Translations under genes and position numbers: made by a program
Assembly: GCA_038087875.1 (NCBI GenBank)
Contig: CM075993.1
Coordinates: forward strand, 11,782,001-11,846,000
Source: Malacoraja senta
Lineage: Eukaryota
DNA length: 64,000 bases
Direction: 5' to 3'
Part shown: in pieces, positions 20,351-55,252 of the stretch
How the letters are laid out: every line of letters begins with the position of its first letter
Position numbering within the stretch: the first letter of the stretch is position 1
Notes under the pieces: generated by a model
The model's input: only the letters and a program-made list of their open reading frames with translations
Database searches by the model: none
Told to the model about the DNA's origin: nothing

Positions 20351-21617
20351 TAATGTGGACAGAGAAGTGTGCTATTCATAACTGTGAAGAATAGGTTTAG
20401 AAAGACAAGTATCCCAGAGAATTATGGGCAATGTAGCATAAATCTGTAAATTCAATGCTCCCAATAGCGAAAATTATGACATTAAAATGGCTTCAATTAA
20501 TATTTTAGACGTAGTATTGTAAATTGTCAATGCCTCAAATCAACAATACTACAGTAATGCTACAATACTATTTACAACTATGATAGGTGCAACTTCTCAA
20601 TATCACATTGAGGTGATTAAAGGAGAAATGCCAGACCAAACTGTGGAATGTTTACCAGCACAAGGTAATTAGAATTGATCCACATCTCCTTATTCTATTT
20701 CTGATGGGGTGGTTTTCAACAAAGCATCTTATATGTATCTCAAATAATGCAATAAGTTTGCGATTCACTGTAAATCACAACTATGACTAATTGTAATCGT
20801 TCACTTAAGAAACACCCACGTGTTTAAGTAAAAAAATAATTAAACATGTATTAGCGATGTTACAAAACCTACCTTCAGCGGCGCTGCCGTTCTGCCACTG
20901 GCCGTGCGCGCGACTTTGGCGCCTTTGGGGGGGGGGCGGGATTAAAATGCAGGTTTGTATCGCTTGTCGGAGAGGGATTTCCTCGGGCTGCTAGTCGATG
21001 AAGAAAAATCGATCGGACTTCCGTTCCCGGTTTTAAAAAAAACGCTGGACAATTTAATAGTTGGATTAAAGTAAAAAGCAACTTCGAACACCCTCAACGT
21101 CTATAACGTGACGGATCGTAATATCAGGACAAAACAAAAGGTAAGTTGTGTATTTCACATATAATCTTGCTTCTTGGGGTGGCTTTAATCTAATTTTACA
21201 ACGCGAAAATGCTATTTGGGCCCCATACGAACCGGCAGTGTCTTTGCCTACTGATATGGGGTTTAAATTCACAGCAACGGCAACGTTCCGATCGATCGCA
21301 TTCCAGAAACACCCACTCGCAAGATAATTTAAATCCTCTTTTTTTTTGGACGATCATGTCATAAGAGGATCTAAATCGGCAATATTTTGTGTTATTGTCT
21401 ATCCATAATCAATATTTTATACTAAATATCCACAACAGTTTGTGCAAAAAATAATAATTTTGATTATATAGAGAGTGGATGTTTCCAGATTAATTTATGG
21501 GAATTAAACATTAAATTCCTTCCATCTGGCATACAAGTTCATGATAGTGAGATTTAAAAATCATGTTATATTGTGAATTCTTGTGTGAATGGGATTAGTT
21601 TGTTATTTGGGTACTTA

Positions 21618-22135
21618 AAGGCCTGTCTCACGAGTCTGCGGTCATTGGCGGTGATACAGGAAGTATCTACCGCTTGTGGGCCGCCAGAGACCGCAGGTTC
21701 GGTCAAACGCACACTGCCGAGGCCGTGCGGCGTTGGTCCCAACACCGCACGGTGCTCACAAAAAATCAACACTGTCTAAAAATAATTTCTTACCGCACAG
21801 CCGCCGCCAGTGAGGCACGAGTGCGGCACGGTCACCGCCAGTGCGGCACGAGCGCCGTGAGTCGAACTCTCACCGCCACAGCCGCCGCCAGTGAGGCACG
21901 TGTGCAGCACGGCCGCCGCCACAGCCCCGCGATCAGAAAGACGTCATCGCGTAGCGCGTCGCGTTGCGCGATGACGTCATCACCCGACGCCGCAAGCTCG
22001 TGGAACCGGCCGTACGAAGATCACTCGGCCCCCGCGCAGCATCCGTGCGCTGCTCTCGTGGTTGCCGTGCGGTCCCCTCTTCCGGCGACGCCGCGCTTCA
22101 CCGCCTATGACCGCAAACCTGTGGGACAGAGCCTT
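21618..22135. mobile_element. PIF/Harbinger-type MITE nested in the TIR element
   Basis: TIR of about 35 bp (AAGGCCTGTCTCAC.../...GTGGGACAGAGCCTT) inserted at TTA; absent from the second copy of the host element; CpG-rich interior. Confidence 0.8.
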
Positions 22136-22382
22136 TTGCCTATATAAAAAAATTATCCTTTTCTTAAGAAATGGATAGATGTTTAGATCTAGTAATTGAA
22201 TTTAGATGAATTTAATTGATTAGATGAATTGATGAAACTGATGAATATGACATTTTTGTTGGGTATTTACTATTTGTTTTAGCGTTTAACTTTATCATTT
22301 CTACCTTTTTTCTAAAACTGCAAATAATAACTTGTTTCTGTTAATGCTGTTCAGTGTTTATTTTCCTTTACATTTTAAACAG

Positions 22383-22715
22383 ATGTCTCCGAAGAAGAAA
22401 TGCAAAATTGTCAATCCAAATGCCCAGCAAAAGAGGCTGATTTAGACAGCATTCGCAGAGATTATCCGAATTTGGACTATGCCAAATGTGATGATCTACA
22501 GGACATTCTTAATGGGAAAGTAGTGGGCAGAAAGGCATGTCATGCGTGGTTTGAAGAGCAAAAGCTTGTGGTTTACAATGCCAAAATTGAAAAGTTGAGG
22601 AAAAACAGTTGCTTATTGATTACAATCTGAGGAGTATGATGATGCTACTGATTATGATATGCCAATGTACCAGCTAGCAACAGATCTTCTCCATAAAGAC
22701 CTGGTCTATTGCTAG
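22383..22715 (+). pseudogene. Residual terminal exon inside the TIR element, with a Tudor/Spin-Ssty-like peptide
   Basis: Polypyrimidine tract plus AACAG acceptor at 22382. Reads DVSEEEMQN...VVGRKACHAWFEEQKLVVYNAKIEKLRK / TVAY*LQSEEYDDATDYDMPMYQLATDLLHKDLVYC*, with one frameshift and one stop; ATTAAA downstream. Confidence 0.55.
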
Positions 22716-23301
22716 AAATTGTAATTTATTTACCTATCTGTTACGGACTTACAGCATATAATACAATAATATTAAAGTTCTGATCTTGAGAATATCACAT
22801 TTTTGAATTTTCAAGGCAGTCTGGGTGTTTATTACTATTTCCGTCACAACGGTCAATTTTGTAATTAGCTACAATTAGGTAACTAACTAATATGCTTTAA
22901 TTTCAGGTCATCCAAGTAAGATGTTTTATATTTGTTTCAGAATGCTTCAATCTATAATAACTGAACATTTCATTCAGTTTTCTTAATTTTTAAGAAAGTT
23001 ATGGGCTTTTAACTGTCCTAGATCACAGCTTTTGTGTTACGTCAATGGAAAAGCAATAGGGAACAAGATGCTAATTTCCGAGTATGAAAATGGCCATAAC
23101 TTTTTTAATACTGAAGATATGAAAGTGAATTAGATGTCAAATTAAACTTCTTTTTATGCTTTATCTGATGGGATAAATTGCAGACTTGATTTTTAAAATC
23201 TCAAAATGTTGTAACATTGCTACATGTATCAAACAAATTAAAAACCTTTTCTCCTCTCCAATGCAAGCTCATCTTGAATCAAAGAAAAATGTTTGCATAG
23301 T

Positions 23302-23584
23302 TGCACAGTGGCGCAGCGGTAGAGTTGCTGCCTTACAGCGCCAGGGACCCGGTTCGATACTGTCTGGATGGAGTTTGCACGTTTTACCTGAGACCTACGT
23401 GGGTTTACACCGGGATCTCCGGTTTCCTCCCACACTCCAAAGACGTACAATTTTGCAAGCTAATTGGCTTGGCATAATTGTAAATTGTCTCTAGTGTGTG
23501 TTAGTGTGCGGGCATCGTTGTTCGGCGTGGACTCGGTGGGTCGAAGGGCCTGTTTCCGCACTGTATCTCTAAACTAAACTAAAC
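23302..23584 (+). mobile_element. V-SINE (HE1-like)
   Basis: A/B boxes, V domain, tail. Confidence 0.87.
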
Positions 23585-24055
23585 ATTATTACAACAGCAA
23601 TAAGCAAATCTGTGAGGATTGTTCTATCTGATGCATGGGAACCGAGTTCCCTCATCCTCAAATCAGTGCCACGTTACAGATTCTATGCCAGAGCTCAGGG
23701 CTGTGATTTTTCATTAAAACTGAGGGTGTGAAAACGGTAGCTCAGCATTAAAGCCTTGGGCAGAGACCAGAGCAGAAACATGGTATTGGTTTACTGCTGT
23801 CATGAGTACCTCAGTATAGTGAAGAACTTTGTTCTGCATGCTCTCCAGACAAGTCATACCTCACACAAGCACAATCCAGCCATACAGAATATAGTGTCAC
23901 AGCAATAGGTCTACATCCCTTGGGACCATTGACAAACCTCCCCATGTCAAACTTGCTCTGAATGAACTGCACTCCGATATCAACAACCTCAAGCTTAAAC
24001 ACCCTGGAGCCCTGGCCATTGTAGCCAGGGACTTCAATCATGCCAACCTCAAGGG

Positions 24056-24372
24056 TTTAGTTTAGTTTGGAGATACAGCACGGAAACAGGTCCTTCGGCC
24101 CACCGCGTCCACGCCGATCAGGGATCCCTGCACATTAACACTATCCTACACACACCAAGGACAATTTTTACATTTACCAAGCCAATTTATCTACAAACCT
24201 GTACGTCTTTGGAGTGTGGGAGGAAACCTAAGATCTCGGAGAAAACCCACGCGGTCACAGGGAGAATGTACGAACTCCGTACAGACTGCACCCGAAGTCG
24301 GGATCGAACCCGGGTCTCCAGCACTGCATGCGCTGTAAGGCAGCGACTCTACCGCTGCGCCACTGTGCCGCC
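24056..24372 (-). mobile_element. V-SINE inserted in a Rex1/Babar endonuclease remnant (about 23900-24410); a further SINE at 24504-24778
   Basis: SINE consensus; the flanks read ALNELHSDINNL..KHPGALAIVA.DFNHANLKG / VLSKYYQHV. Confidence 0.82.
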
Positions 24373-35103: not shown

Positions 35104-36124
35104 TCAATACTTTGTAGAACCACCTTTCGCTGCAATTACAGCTGCAAGTCTTTTGGGGTATGTCTCTACCAGCTTTGCACATCTAGAGTCTGAAATGTTC
35201 TGCCCATTCTTCTGTGCAAAATAGCTCAAGCTCAGTCAGATTGGATGGAGAGCATCTGTGAACAGCAATTTTCAAGTCTTGCCAGAGATTCTCAATTGGA
35301 TTTAGGTCTGGACTTTGACTGGGCCATTCTAACACATGAATATGCTTTGATCTAAACCATTCCATTGTAGCTCTGGCTGTATGTTTAGGGTCGTTGTCCT
35401 GCTGGAAGGTGAACCTCCGCCCCAGTCTCAAGTCTTTTGCAGACTCTAACAGGTTTTCTTCCAAGATTGCCCTGTATTTGGCTCCATCCATCTTCCCATC
35501 AACTCTGACCAGCTTCCCTGTCCCTGCTGAAGAAAAGCATCCCCACAGCATGATGCTGCCACCACCATGTTTCACAGTGGGGATGGTGTGTTCAGGGTGA
35601 TGTGCAGTGTTAGGTTTCCGCCACACATAGCGTTTTGCATTTAGGCCAAAAACTTTAATTTTGGTCTCATCTGACCAGAGCACCTTCCTCCACATGTTTG
35701 CTGTGTCCCCCACATGGCTTGTGGCAAACTGCAAACGGGACTTCTTATGGCTTTTTTTCAACAATGGCTTTCTTCTTGCCACTCTTCCATAAAGGCCCGA
35801 TTTGTGGAGTGCACGACTAATAGTTGTCCTGTGGACAGATTCTCCCACCCAAGCTGTGGATCTCTGCAGCTCCTCCAGAGTTACCATGGGCCTCTTGGCT
35901 GCTTCTCTGATCAATGCTCTCCTTGCCCGGCCTGTCAGTTTAGGTGGACGGCCATGTCTTGGTAGGTTTGCAGTTGTGCCATACTCTTTCCATTTTCGGA
36001 TGATGGATTGAACAGTGCTCCATGAGATGTTCAAAGCTTGGGATATTTTTTTATAACATAACCCTGCTTTAAACTACTCCACAACGTTATCCCTGACCTG
36101 TCTGGTGTGTTCCTTGGGCTTCAT
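35104..36124 (-). pseudogene. Tc1 DD34E transposase, disabled
   Basis: MKPKEHTRQVRDNVVE* (TAG at codon 17), GRPPKL linker, WSDETK / QQDND / SPDLNPIENLW with 34 residues between D and E. A +1 frameshift precedes the SRCAKLVETYPKRL...GGSTKY* tail. Confidence 0.93.
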
Positions 36125-36363
36125 GATGCTGTTTGTTCACTAATGTTCTCTAACAAACCTCTGAGGCCTTCACAGAACAGCTGTATTTATACTGAGATTA
36201 GATTACACACAAGTGGACTCTATTTACTAATTAGGTGACTTCTGAAGGCAATTGGTTGCACTGGATTTTATTTAGGGGTATCAGAGTAAAGGGGGCTGAA
36301 TACTTTTGCACGCGACACTTTTCAGTTTTTTATTTGTAAAAAAATTTGAAAACCATGTATCAT

Positions 36364-37287
36364 GTATCATCAAAGTCTACAGAGAGATTTAGGCCATTTG
36401 GAAGAGTGGGCTGAAAGATGGCAGATGGAGTTTAATGCTGACAAATGTGAGGTGCTACATCTCGGCAGGACAAATCAAAATAGGACGTACACGGTAAATG
36501 GTAGCGAATTGAGGAATGCAGTTGAACAGAGGGATCTAGGAATAACTGTGCATAGTTCCCTGAAGGTGGAATCTCATGTAGATAGGGTGGTAAAGAAAGC
36601 TTTTGGTGTGCTGGCCTTTATAAATCAGAGCATTGAATATAGAAGTTGGGATGTAATGTTAAAATTGTACAAGGCATTGGTGAGGCCAATTCTGGAGTAT
36701 GGAGTACAATTTTGGTCGCCTAATTATAGGAAGGATGTCAACAAAATAGAGAGAGTACAGAGGAGATTTACTAGAATGTTGCCTGGGTTTCAGCAACTAA
36801 GTTACAGAGAAAGGTTGAACAAGTTAGGTCTTTATTCTTTGGAGCGCAGAAGGTTAAGAGGGGACTTGATAAAGGTCTTTAAAATTATGAGCGGGTTAGA
36901 CAGAGTGGACGTGGATAAGCTTTTCCCATTGAGAGTAGGGAAGATTCAAACAAGGGGACATGACTTGAGAATTAAGGGACAGAAGTTTAGGGGGGACATT
37001 AGGGGGAACTTCTTTACTCAGAGAGTGGTAGCTGTGTGGAATGAGCTTCCAGTGGAAGTGGTGGAGGCAGGTTCGATGTTATCCTTTAAAAATAGATTGG
37101 ATGGGTATATGGACGGGAAAGGAATGGAGGGTTATGGTCTGAGTGCAGGTAGATGGGACTAGGGGGAAGTATTTATTTTTAATTAAAAAAAAATAATTAA
37201 AAAATAAAAATTAAAAAATAAAAATGTTCGGCACGGACTTGAAGGGCCGAGATGGCCTGTTTCCGTGCTGTTATGGTTATATGGTTA
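36364..37287 (+). mobile_element. Young 5'-truncated CR1 LINE nested in the Tc1 right TIR
   Basis: Open 266-aa ORF2 C-terminus (WQMEFNADKCEVLHLG, LEYGVQFWSP, LERRRLRGDLI, FFTQRVV.VWN.LP); (TATGGTTA)n tail; TATCAT duplicated at both ends. Confidence 0.93.
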
Positions 37288-49295: not shown

Positions 49296-51061
49296 GGGTT
49301 TGAGTTGAATAAGACGAGGGTGCTCGTTCATATAGCTGTGTGATTTCAACCCGGGAACGGCTTGTCATGATTATGTCCTTGTATAATCCAGAAATTTATA
49401 ACGTAAAGCATTGTAAAAGTTTGAACTGACATGAGAAATGTCCATTTTACTTCTTCATTTGGGACATATGAAGGCAGCTTGAAGCCAATTGCAACAAGTC
49501 TCCTACAGGTTGCATTTGGGTAAGTCCAGATAGAATTGAATAATATTTATGCGATCTCTAGGCTGGGCATTTGTAACCCAACCTGTACCTTAACCATCCT
49601 AACACCAACTAGAGAATGGTCCTGACCTACCATCTACCCCAATGGAGACCCTCTGACTATCTTTAATCAGACTATATTAGACTTTATTTTGCACTAAATG
49701 TTATTCCCTTTATCTTGTATCTGTACATGTGGATGGCTCGATTGTAATCATGTATTGTCTTTTCACTGACTGGATAGCATGCAACAAAAAGCTTTTCAAT
49801 GCCTGTGACAATAAACTAAACTATACTGATCTAGATTAAATATCCCGTCAACGTTAAATGTTTGGAGAATATGTCATAAAAGAATTCTACACAGATATAT
49901 ATCAGCCAAGATAAGAATAGGGAAAAGTATGGACAGATTGTCTTTGACATGCTTTACCGCTACAACTTATATTTTGAGCTGAATGACTCAGAAAGAGGTA
50001 TACTCTGGGAAGCTTCAAAAGCCTATATTAGGGGCCAACTTATCTCTTTTGTCTCCAACCTGAAAAGAACCGAGACGTCCCAAACGGCAGACCTGTTACA
50101 AAAAATAAAGGACATTGATGATAAATATGCATCTGACCCAGACCCTAACCTTTATAGAGAACGCCTTAGGTTACAAACAGACTTTGACCTCACGTCTACT
50201 AATAAAGCCAAGCTATGACTGCTTAAATCTAGGCAACACTTTTTTTGAATCTGGGGATAAAGCTGGGACGCTTTAGGCCCATCAGGCCAGAACCGAGGCG
50301 ACTTCACGGCTAATTTCAGCCATTAGATCCAGCTTAGGGTAGAATCATACTGATCCTCTTAGAATGAATGAAGCATTTGCTAAATTCTACGCTGAACTAT
50401 ACGCTTCCGACTGTCCTCCCACTGCAGGTGACATGTTCAGTAGTATGACGTTTCCCCGAATTGACAATGAAGCCACGAGAGACTTGGGTGGTCCCATAAC
50501 TGTTGCTGAGGTCCAAGCAACCATCACATCGCTGCAAAGCGGAAAGTCACCCGGCCCTGACGGCTTCACTGTAGAATATTACAAAGCTTTCTCTGCTCTC
50601 CTCGCACCAGTCCTGAGAGATATGTACAATGAGGCGTTTTTACATCGTCGCCTACCGCCCACCTTGTCGTGGGCTACTATCTCCCTAATTCTTAAAAAGG
50701 AGAAAGATCCCCTGCTTTGTAGTAGCTATAGACCAATTTCACTCCTGAATGTGGACCTCAAAATCCTCTCTAAAGCCCTTGCGCTTCGTCTTCAACGAGT
50801 GATGCCCTCTATTATCTCGTTAGATCAAACAGGGTTCATACCAGGCCGACAGTCTTCCCACAATACTAGGCGTCTCCTTAACATCATCCATTCTCCGAGT
50901 AGTGAGACCCCGGAGATAGTGGTCTCCCTCGACGCCGAAAAAGCTTTCGACAGGGTCGAGTGGAGGTACCTATATGAGGCGATGGACAGGTTTGGCCTCG
51001 GTAACAAGTATATTCTTTGGGTCAGTCTATTATACTCGTCCCCGGTGGCCTCAGTACAAAC

Positions 51062-52028
51062 TGTGGGAGTGGCGGCGCCTAACGGCAGCGGCTCAACTAC
51101 AGGCTCAACTACAGTCGTCCGTCTTTTTTTTAAATTTTTGTCTTGTTAAATGTATGTCCTGAGCTTAGTTTTTATTATTTTTTAGCTGTGTATATGTGGG
51201 GGGTGGAGGGGGGGATGTTGGGAAACCGTTAATCTCTTCCCTGTACGGGGACCCGACTTTTTCCGTCGGATCTCCGATGTCATTGGGCCTAACATTGTGG
51301 AGCCGGCGGCAGCCTCCGGCCGGGACCAACCTAAGGGCTCCGGTCGCGGAGCCTGGGACCTGACATTGCGGAGCTGGCCGGCTTTGGAGCGGGGAGAGCT
51401 GTGGTGGCGCTCGGCTGCGACCCGACTTTGGAGTTTCGGAAGCTCCGGCTGCGGGCCCGATGGACAGGAACATCGGGAGCTCCAGGTCCCTGGTGGGAGA
51501 CGGCTTTTCGGAGCTCCCGCAACGGCAACTTCTCCCGTTGGAATCGCGAGGTTTGGAGGACACGGAGCGAGGCCTAACATCGCCCGGCGCGGGTTGGCAG
51601 CCACGGGACTTACCATCGTCTGCCGGGGGCTCTAACATCGGAGCCCCAGTTCGCCTAGACGCTGCAGTTGGACTGCGGGTTGGACTGCTTGAACCGCGGG
51701 GTTTGAAGGACACGGAGCCGGGACCTGGCATCGCCCGGCGTGGCTAAATGGCCACAGGACTTACCATCGTCTGCCGGGGGCTTTAACACCGGAGCCCCAG
51801 TTCGCCTAGACGCTGCAGTTGGACTGCTGGACCGCGGGTGAAGAATAAAGGGAAGAGATAAGACTTTGCCTTCCATCACAGTGAGGAGATGTTGGAGACT
51901 CACTGTGATGGATGTTTATGTAAACTGTGTTAAGTGTGGGTCTTGGGTTTTTTTGTAATGTAAAAAACTGTAGTAATGATATTTCGTTCAAGCCTAGGTT
52001 TGAATGACAATAAATAGTATTCTATTCT
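51062..52028 (+). mobile_element. GC/CpG-rich non-autonomous element inserted in L1 ORF2
   Basis: Removing it restores ASVQT-NGTLSPHFTLQRGTRQG. It has an internal tandem duplication with about 150-bp period and ends GACAATAAA...(ATTCT)n like a retroposon tail. Confidence 0.8.
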
Positions 52029-54213
52029 AAACGGCACACTGTCGCCCCACTTCACCCTTCAGAGAGGTACCAGACAGGGTTGCCCGTTATCACCACTCCT
52101 GTTTGCTGTCGCGATAGAACCCTTGGCGGTCTGGTTACGCTCAGAGAAGGGCTTTAAAGGTATTACACGGTTCGACACAACTCATAAAGTCTCATTGTAT
52201 GCGGATGACCTGCTCCTGTACATCTCGAACCCAGTCAGTTCTCTCTCTGTGATTACGAATATTTTAGAACGGTTTGGTGCGTATTCTGGTTATAAACTTA
52301 ACTAGCAAAAGAGTGAGCTATTACCGATTAACTCATTGGCTAAGCAGCTCCCTCGCTCTTTAACCTCATTCAAATGGGCAGAGGACGGGTTCCGCTATCT
52401 CGGTGTTTTTATCACAACACCCTTATCTGATATGTTCCGCACAAACTTTCTGCCTCTGGTTGAGAAAGCCGAAAGAGATTTTGACCGCTGGTCAGTTTTA
52501 CCGCTATCCCTCGTGGGCCGGATAAATCTGGTCAAGATGGTCGTCCTACCCAAATTCCTGTATCTTTTCCAGCACGTCCCTATACTTATCACTAAATCTT
52601 TTTTTGATAAATTAGAAAGGGCAATATCTAAATTTTATGGGGTAGCAAACCGGCTAGAATCCGAAAGGCGATACTGCAGTCTCCTAAGAGTGACGGCGGT
52701 TTGGCACTTCCTGACTTTAGGCGATACTATTGGGCAGCTAACTTGCAAAAACTCCTGTATTGGATGAATGATGATTGCGACCACCTACCGACCTGGGTAC
52801 ACATGGAAAAGGCGAGTTCACGTCTCCCGTTGCGGTCTGTCCTATGCTCCCAACTCCCCCTTCCTATAACATCTGTGGGTGCAGGCCCAATTGCGCCCCT
52901 CTCGCTCAAGATATGGAGTCAACTCAGGAAAAACTTCGGTTTACAAGGCCCTTCCATCTTGACCCCACTGCTTAAAAATCACATCTTTAAAACCTTCAAG
53001 TACAGACCACGCATTCAAAACCTGGCATAGCAACGGTATCAGTAGTTTCAAAAACCTATACAAGGATGGCATCTTTTCGTCCTTTGCGGAGCTCTCGTCC
53101 AACTATAGCCTCCCAAACTCCCACCTTTTTCGTTTTTTTCCAGATTAGGGATTTTGTGAAGAAGATATTCCCCCATTTCCCAAATCGCCCCCCTGAAACC
53201 CTGACCGATACCATCTTAGCTGTAGATCCCAACCGGAAGAAATGCATCTCTATTTTGTATAACTTGCTAGGGTCGGTTATATTGAAACCTCATACCTCAT
53301 TAAAAAGCTGCGTGGGAGGGTGAGCTGAATATGAAACAGACCAGCAATGGGACTCTGCCCTTGGATTTGATCCATTCTTCCTCCATATGTGCCCGTCATG
53401 GCCTAATCCAATGCAAAGTCCTTCACAAAGTCCACTACACAAATGCAAGATTATCTAGAATTTACCCCGCTGTTAGGGACACCTGCAACAGATGTAATCA
53501 ATCCCCTGCCAACTACAGCCATATGTTTTGGTCTTTCCCTAAACTAGTAGCCTTTTGGAGGAGTGCTTTCGACTTGATAAGCAGAGCATACGGCCAGACT
53601 ATTCCTCCAAACCCAATGTCAGCCATTTTCGGTACCCCTCCCAACACCAACCTCTCTGTTGCGGTGAAACGGGTCCTAGCTTTTACAACCTTGTTAGCCC
53701 GGAGACTGATCTTGCTTTACTGGAGGCTTACCTGTCCCCCGACACACGCCCATTGGATTAAGGAGGCGCTTTACAATTTAAAGCTTGGAAAACGTAGGTT
53801 CTCTCTCAAAGGCTCTACCAAGACATTCCTAGATACATGGAACCCTTTCTTGGAACTTGTTAACTCTCTCAACTTGTCTCCGGACTCGGAAGAGGACTGA
53901 GTGCTCTCCACCATTGTTTTGCTCTACAGCAGCTGCTCTCCCCTAAACCCCCCACCCTCCACAATTATTATTTAATTACTTACTTATTTACTGTTGTTAG
54001 TGACCCCATTTTTAAAATTATTTTTTTAGTACTTTTTGTTTTGTTTACCTTACCATATGTGTGTGGATGTGTACGTATGTGAGTGTTGTTTGTCCCCGTT
54101 TGGTTCCGACCTGATTCGGGTGGGTTGAAGGTGGGTAAGGGTAAGGGCTTTGAGGGTCGCTTACATACTGTTGCACAATTATGCCTTGACTGTCACTGTC
54201 TGTTATCATAGTA

Positions 54214-55252
54214 TATCAATGTTACAAAATTTTGAGATATTTAAAAATAAAGTCTGCAACTTATCTCCATCAGATAAAGCATAAAAAGAAGTTTAATTTG
54301 ACACTTAATTCACTTTCATATCTTCAGTATTAAAAAAGTTATGGCCATTATCATACTCAGAAATTAGCATCTAGTTCCCTATTGCTTTTCCATTCACTTA
54401 ACACAAAAGCTGTGATCGAGGACAGTTAAAAGCCCATAACTTTCTTAAGAATTATGGTAACTGAAAGAAATTTTCAGGTATTATAGATTGAAGCATTCTG
54501 AAACAAATATGAAACAATCTTACTTCGAAGACATGAAAGTAAAGCATATAATTAGTTAGTTACCTAATTGTAGCTAATTACAAAATTCAATTACTAGATC
54601 TAAACATCTATCAATTTCTTAAGAATAGATTAACATTTTTAAATAGCCTAAGTGTCCAAATAACATTCACACAATAATTCACAATATAACATAATTTTTA
54701 AATCTAATTTTCATGAATTTACAGGCCAAATGGAAGGAATTGAATGTTTAATACCTGTAAATTAATGGGATTTAAATCATCTTGTGAGTGAGGATTACTG
54801 GAACGCGATCTTTTGGAACGTTGATTTGCGGTGAATTTAACCCCGTATTGGCATGAAAAATACTGCCGTTAATTCGGGGAATAAAATCACCGTGTCGCAT
54901 GACAAAATGTGAATTAAAGGCTTCTTAAGAAGCACTTTTATACATTTAAAGAAAGCACTTTCGTTTACCTGTCCATTGTGTGAAATCCGTCCCCGTTATC
55001 GGCGTTGACGCTTCAGGAGCTGCTTTTAAAATGACTGTAGCGCTGACATTGACGATTTAATAAAAATAAAAAATTCACAAAAAGCCGGTAGGAACGATTT
55101 TGTCAGCCAAGGTTTGTACTCCAACAAAATATTTCCAGGACAAGGGAGAAACCCGCGTTTTAACCCCGCCCCCCCTTAAAGGCGCCAAAATCGCGTACAC
55201 GGCCAGTGGCAGAATTACAGCGCGACTGAAGGTAAGTTTTGTAACATACCTT
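54214..55252 (-). mobile_element. Non-autonomous TIR DNA element (short copy of the 20852-23222 family) inserted in the L1 3' UTR
   Basis: ATGTTACAAAA...TTTTGTAACAT termini; collinear in reverse orientation with both arms of 20852-23222. Confidence 0.85.

Follow-up and report, generated by a model that had tools for sequence, protein, structure and literature searches.

A dead transposon remnant in Malacoraja senta whose parent transposase is predicted to join a hAT-type core to a spindlin-type Tudor domain

The remnant, its element and the autonomous parent

We analyzed a stretch of 64,000 nucleotides from Malacoraja senta (contig CM075993.1; hereafter, the window), in which positions 22383–22715 lie within a non-autonomous transposable element. 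Its features are given below in window positions; the target-site duplications, stop codon and ATTAAA motif were read directly from the sequence.

20845–20851 (unstranded): 7-bp target-site duplication, left copy
20852–23222 (+): non-autonomous deletion derivative of a predicted hAT-type element, 2.37 kb (usual family length ~1.88 kb)
20852–20865 (+): left terminal inverted repeat (TIR), TAG end; 14-nt arms, 93% complementary
21141–22382 (+): likely 5'-UTR intron, GT donor at 21141 and AG acceptor at 22381–22382, with the nested element inside
21619–22134 (unstranded): nested, unrelated non-autonomous TIR element, ~516 bp, AGG...CCT ends, TTAA-like target; a later insertion
22383–22427 (+): first 45 nt of the transposase frame from its ATG; this reading stops after 20 codons at 22443–22445
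22428–22430 (+): junction of a ~2.6-kb internal deletion by which the catalytic core was lost; same junction in 30 of 30 loci
22430–22715 (+): 3' end of the transposase frame (~95 codons plus stop), not in frame with the ATG; identity to the parent is 93% from here to the right end of the element
22508–22712 (+): remnant of a predicted spindlin-type Tudor domain (parent residues 907–978), interrupted by the loss of 11 bp near 22606 and by a TGA codon at 22617–22619
22713–22715 (+): stop codon
22771–22776 (+): candidate poly(A) signal ATTAAA, also present in the parent
23209–23222 (+): right TIR, CTA end; 14-nt arms, 93% complementary
23223–23229 (unstranded): 7-bp target-site duplication, right copy

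The initial annotation had described a TAG-ended TIR element at 20852–23222 with a splice acceptor ending at 22382, a stop codon and an ATTAAA motif, and all of these were confirmed, the TIRs being flanked by a 7-bp duplication. The element measures 2.37 kb instead of ~1.88 kb because the nested element, which the initial annotation did not mention, sits inside it; sister copies have TAG...CTA ends, 7-bp duplications and a length of ~1.88 kb, and they lack 21619–22134. Across the 1.94-Gb genome, there are 1775 candidate places for the stretch 22383–22715. Apart from the window copy, 39 matches were listed; they are 93–95% identical to it, and most are 342–346 bp long versus 333 bp in the window copy (9–13 bp longer). 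The peptide originally quoted is indeed readable in two frames, across one frameshift and one TGA. The frameshift results from a deletion of 11 bp that, among the copies read, only the window copy has. We read 17 plus-strand sister loci, three of which are frameshifted at the TGA position, and all 14 in-frame copies left for comparison carry a Trp codon there, in line with the suggested origin of the TGA. Given the copies throughout the genome and an intact parent, the window peptide is not a product of chance.

Two database proteins with the same terminal peptide led to an autonomous element in the host genome, with 129 genome matches, 12 of which retain an uninterrupted 978-codon frame. The domain was found, as had been anticipated, to travel with the TIRs and a transposase. 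The parent copy (L043:2193-6463) is 4,271 bp long and encodes a 978-aa transposase in one coding exon. Out of 31 autonomous loci examined, two were incomplete, and all 29 complete copies are flanked by 7-bp duplications; their identity to the parent copy is 91.5–99.8%. Because most copies exceed 98%, the family appears to have moved recently.

In the parent, the acceptor directly abuts the start ATG of the single 978-codon frame, so we placed the intron in the 5' UTR. The offset of the splice donor nearly matches between the window (289) and the parent (287), and one contig from a related organism (run X3, guessed to be RNA) joins sequence like 21110–21140 to the exon starting with the ATG. 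A 5'-UTR intron is therefore likely in both the window element and its parent, with splicing weakly indicated by this one contig. The stretch 22383–22715 is the start of the transposase frame fused out of frame, through the ~2.6-kb deletion, to the last ~290 nt of that frame; the first 15 residues in the originally proposed reading are the parent's N-terminus in the wrong frame. The window copy is an ordinary dead remnant.

The remnant family decays neutrally. Variants across 23 copies, taken as the best-scoring and not as a random draw, comprised 14 synonymous, 42 missense and 8 nonsense changes, with a dN/dS of about 1.07. When a single young parent copy was compared with a single remnant copy over the last 98 codons, 3 synonymous and 10 nonsynonymous differences were counted, and this pair showed no sign of constraint on these codons within the host genome. 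Over its 5' part, the window family resembles an older subfamily more closely (77–89% versus 69–85%), with a left end common to the copy at L070, and its direct parent was not found in the host genome.

Several other observations concern the surroundings of these elements. A ~1.04-kb non-autonomous member of the same family lies at 54214–55251 on the minus strand, with the 5' end of the younger subfamily and no coding remnant. At 2 of 12 loci (L045 and L050), a shorter family member lies within a few hundred bases of an autonomous copy, which may reflect local hopping. Several insertions are in TA or GATA microsatellites (L048, L071, L078 and L054 were noted), and L048 and L078 have identical junction flanks, so that they are probably a segmental duplicate. 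The nested element, which we take to be Kolobok-like, has 3943 candidate places in the genome; its copies are in tandem at L137 and L150 and adjoin a similar end at L122, L138 and L148. Elsewhere, the window holds a Tc1/Sleeping Beauty-like transposase frame of 296 codons (35186–36073, minus strand), fragments of LINE reverse transcriptase (50343–51146 and 53304–53897, plus strand), a segment resembling a LINE tail by eye that has no Pfam match (36350–37159, plus strand), and, immediately to the right of the element, a pair of SINE-like copies in inverted orientation (23303–23584 and 24055–24368).

The transposase core

Pfam assigned no family to the 978-aa parent protein, the window pieces or the intact remnants, and neither the Dimer_Tnp_hAT domain nor a BED finger was matched in the 978-aa protein or 58 relatives. 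Searches of PDB sequences with the single sequence or a full-length profile returned only chance or coiled-coil matches. At E <= 0.001, 130 relatives of the transposase were found, all uncharacterised save one fused model; the named ones come from sponge, Hydra, molluscs, priapulid, sea spider, brachiopod, echinoderms and teleosts. In a quick tree of the core, the host element falls beside P0005, a placement on which we base no claim of transfer. The ESM Atlas returned two clusters for the core (0.94 and 0.93), and no informative match for the remnant (best 0.80).

The full-length model (pLDDT 86) points to hAT transposases. The first ten Foldseek rows were all Hermes (E 1e-6 to 1e-4), and VIA superposed the model on Hermes with Z 17.3 and an rmsd of 4.0 over 345 residues, followed by ISCth4 (10.3) and the P element (8.5). 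The residues D429/D506/E784 and the motif C531xxH534 are kept in 80–83 of 83 relatives, with C531 and H534 present in all 83. Based on these data, the parent transposase is predicted to be of hAT type, with a Hermes-like core and an atypical 7-bp duplication. According to the available text of PMC12730594, hAT elements usually duplicate 8 bp of target, and hAT5, hAT6 and fungal hAT7 are exceptions inside the superfamily. Because subgroups with 5-, 6- and 7-bp duplications are known from that text (PMC12730594), a 7-bp duplication excludes only the typical hAT groups.

The parent resembles Hermes and other hAT transposases (PDB 6dwz, 4d1q, 8edg, 8sjd) in its predicted RNase H core with an insertion domain, its DDE triad and CxxH motif, and its short TIRs. 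It differs in the 7-bp instead of the usual 8-bp duplication, in the lack of a Pfam hAT or BED match, and in its sequence, which is only 11–12% identical to Hermes and is extended by a long coiled region at the N-terminus and a Tudor domain at the C-terminus.

The hATw group of Repbase and RepeatModeler has 7-bp target duplications. The parent is like this group by description, in its 7-bp duplication and in the many Hydra members among the relatives of its transposase. The element family is probably already catalogued, the likeness to hATw being one of description only. The label hAT-hATw has been applied to Hydra and amphioxus elements, and the available portions of the two sources make no mention of a Tudor or spindlin domain with elements so labelled (PMC13465017, PMC12905397).

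The C-terminal domain and its relation to spindlins

The last ~70 residues of the parent transposase were modeled as a Tudor-like barrel with a closing helix (pLDDT 91). The initial annotation had predicted a spliced parent protein with a C-terminal spindlin-like domain; the splicing was not borne out, as there is a single coding exon, and the spindlin likeness was upheld by fold and, more weakly, by sequence profile. Foldseek placed Spindlin1 at rank 1 (E 0.043). A wide VIA search gave a tie among RDM15 (7.3), Spindlin-4 (7.0) and the TraI barrel, which is not a reader (6.8), all below Z 8. A second look with VIA placed repeat 2 of SPIN1 first (Z 8.7, rmsd 2.2 Å, 66 residues), ahead of RDM15 (7.3), BAHCC1 (7.1) and the N-terminal barrel of Tn7 TnsB (6.9); the superposition on SPIN1 residues 123–193 ranged from Z 8.0 to 8.7.

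Sequence profiles gave a concordant picture. With a profile of 91 tail sequences against 177,635 PDB sequences, the first 15 rows were all spindlins (E 0.023–0.17). Profile-profile comparison of the tail with spindlin repeat 1 reached 93.6% (pairwise E 2e-7; reversed control, 0.35%), versus only 22% for repeat 2 and nil for repeat 3. Repeat 1 of the host's own spindlin scored 14.4 bits against the tail, the best of 2000 shuffles being 7.3.

The proposed membership in the Pfam Spin-Ssty family (PF02513) was not confirmed, since no match was obtained for the remnant, the parent, 58 relatives, 91 domain sequences or the genome copies of the element. The only Pfam matches to the tail were weak ones, below the cut-off, to PTM/DIR17, BAHCC1, SMN and Agenet Tudor families, and PF21743 had no match anywhere in the host genome, a negative of little weight. 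We thus regard the tail as spindlin-like but not a Spin/Ssty member by the Pfam rule, because its closest fold and profile are those of spindlins and the PF02513 cut-off was never reached. The parent tail is predicted to be a single spindlin-type Tudor domain.

Spindlin-1 to -4 (PF02513; PDB 7e9m, 4h75, 4uy4) are the closest known proteins in fold and sequence profile, and their cage and acidic positions align with residues of the tail. However, spindlins carry three tandem repeats in a host gene, while the tail is one copy fused to a transposase, is only 15–17% identical to them, falls below the Pfam model and has more residues separating its third cage position from the helix. The Tudor domain of Arabidopsis RDM15 (7de9, PF21743) and the tandem Tudor of BAHCC1 (8ye8, PF21744) are nearly tied in fold (Z 7.3 and 6.2–7.1), with weak Pfam matches in 4 and 2 of 58 relatives, respectively. 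Unlike the tail, they belong to host proteins, and both were absent from the list of PDB sequences found with the tail profile.

The tail domain is conserved across the transposase family. It is complete in 83 of the 120 relatives listed and partial in 7, and 29 of the other 30 end before it; its position is equivalent in relatives ranging from cnidarians to fish. When 1.84 billion representatives were searched, the domain gave 188 matches, nearly all C-terminal among those listed, and no tandem domains were found among the 150 listed of these 188.

Possible reader function and origin

In SPIN1, the methyl-lysine cage consists of F141, W151, Y170 and Y177, and D184 and D189 bind R2 and A1 of H3, as given in the available text of PMC7864079; we checked the numbering on P0164. 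The profile alignment pairs W920 of the parent with F141, Y929 with W151, Y946 with Y170, D969 with D184 and D974 with D189. It leaves F959 unpaired and sets Y177 opposite P962, so the role of F959 is deduced from strand order. The tail would thus hold a putative four-residue aromatic cage, with three positions supported by sequence and the fourth uncertain. An aromatic residue is present at each of the four positions W920, Y929, Y946 and F/Y959 in 75 of 84 sequences across animals, and the cage aromatics occur together with the acidic D969/D974 in 72 of 84. Residues Y946, D969, W920 and H918 vary no more than the catalytic residues do. A complex prediction of the tail with the host's unmodified H3 tail, run without an alignment, scored 0.01, which counts neither for nor against binding.

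Because the tail is predicted to fold like Spindlin, the enzyme is likely to grip methylated chromatin. We consider it probable that the tail binds methyl-lysine, and a more tentative suggestion, somewhat short of an even chance, is that it reads an H3K4-type mark at the free N-terminus of H3. Under the proposed mechanism, the tail, borne on a long helix that follows the catalytic core, would read methyl-lysine, most likely at the H3 N-terminus, and would tether the transposase to nucleosomes; the window copy would supply only ends that the parent's enzyme could move. An effect of the tail on where the element inserts, the chromatin-guided targeting suggested in the initial annotation, is doubtful. 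The CpG observed/expected ratio was higher in the flanks of 28 autonomous insertions (0.49) than in 40 random stretches (0.42; p 0.02), but it did not differ from that in the flanks of 26 copies of a control element (0.50; p 1.0), and 22 non-autonomous 3' flanks showed no CpG difference (p 0.6). One duplicate autonomous locus and four control loci (self, duplicate or tandem) had been dropped, and canonical hAT copies proved unsuitable as a control, being too old and heterogeneous. The initial difference from random DNA vanished against the control element. Flank composition, a crude test that is blind to histone marks, gives no Tudor-specific targeting signal.

Other readings of the tail were weighed against this one. 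The tail may be a structural Tudor/SH3-like module whose partner is DNA, a methylated protein other than a histone, or the transposase itself, in the manner of the TnsB and TraI barrels. These barrels lie within 2 Z of spindlin (6.9 and 6.8), the strand at 931–940 is rich in lysine, and the flanks show no targeting signal. Nevertheless, the sequence profile is topped by spindlins alone, conserved aromatic and acidic residues occupy the ligand-binding positions of spindlin, and the other top folds, RDM15 and BAHCC1, have also been solved with methyl-lysine peptides, so that we regard a structural role as unlikely, at roughly one chance in four. It is far less probable that the short copies are kept for a free 108-residue Tudor protein starting at ATG 22400, which would compete with the enzyme or with host spindlin. 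Among the 17 plus-strand sister loci, 9 keep this frame open, and three proteins (P0245, P0294 and P0307) fuse the N-terminal part to the domain without the core; however, variants across the 23 copies are neutral and include 8 nonsense changes, an upstream start at ATG 22383 lies in another frame, and the window copy is broken twice.

The remaining alternative starts from the initial annotation. The stretch would be a separate terminal exon that either joins an upstream transposase exon by splicing or was captured from a host spindlin gene. A clean acceptor does lie upstream, and a phase-1 reading is open in intact sister copies. Yet the parent is a single 978-codon coding exon with the acceptor before its ATG, 30 of 30 loci share one deletion junction, relatives ranging from cnidarians to fish carry the domain at the corresponding position, and the tail is only 15–17% identical to spindlins, the host spindlin gene itself being multi-exon and located elsewhere. 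The spliced terminal exon is thereby refuted, and we give the alternative as a whole almost no chance. Overall, the reading that we prefer, and hold to be probably correct, is that the stretch is a dead remnant of the tail of a hAT-type transposase, no longer in frame, and that the intact tail is predicted to fold as a single spindlin-type Tudor domain, likely a reader of methylated H3 that would tether the enzyme.

As a separate observation, P0245, P0294 and P0307 are in-frame joins of the N-terminal part and the Tudor domain with no catalytic core, and may represent repressor-like deletion forms.

In the literature searched, which does not include Repbase Reports, we came across no DNA transposase bearing a domain of the Tudor or spindlin type. 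Gypsy-10_Ec32 of Ectocarpus is called the first reported transposable element with a Tudor domain in the accessible part of a 2025 paper (PMC12477816). As in Gypsy-10_Ec32 and in chromodomain Gypsy elements, the integrating enzyme of the parent ends in a chromatin-reader domain, here a predicted one; Gypsy-10_Ec32 is, however, an LTR retrotransposon of a brown alga, while the parent is a cut-and-paste DNA transposon of an animal with a spindlin-type domain.

The tail domain is the nearest relative of Spin/Ssty outside host genes in the present searches and offers a lead on the origin of spindlins. The repeat of the host's own multi-exon spindlin is 92–95% identical to those of shark, ray and chimaera spindlins, which marks the host as a cartilaginous fish, and has 322 relatives; each of the 120 listed carries PF02513, and the named ones come exclusively from vertebrates. 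Among 141 new tail matches (50% representatives, from the 150 of 188 listed), 86 are preceded by transposase sequence, 47 do not extend far enough to judge, 6 are unusual but resemble fragments or deletion forms, and 2 are chance; two-domain proteins numbered 0 of 139. The initial annotation had suggested a link to the origin of vertebrate spindlins. The transposon domain resembles the spindlin repeat and is the more widely distributed of the two; no intermediate between spindlin and transposon was found among the 120 spindlin-repeat relatives listed or the 141 new tail matches, and the data give no direction of descent. In the boldest version, an animal-wide, active hAT lineage would read H3 methylation to pick its sites, and vertebrate spindlins would be its domesticated and triplicated domain; we consider this improbable. 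A preprint reportedly describes SPIN1 as silencing young transposable elements. If that version were true, a host reader said to silence young transposons would descend from a transposon's own targeting module. The near-identical intact copies make both the mark bound by the domain and its steering of insertion directly testable, with a bearing on vector design.
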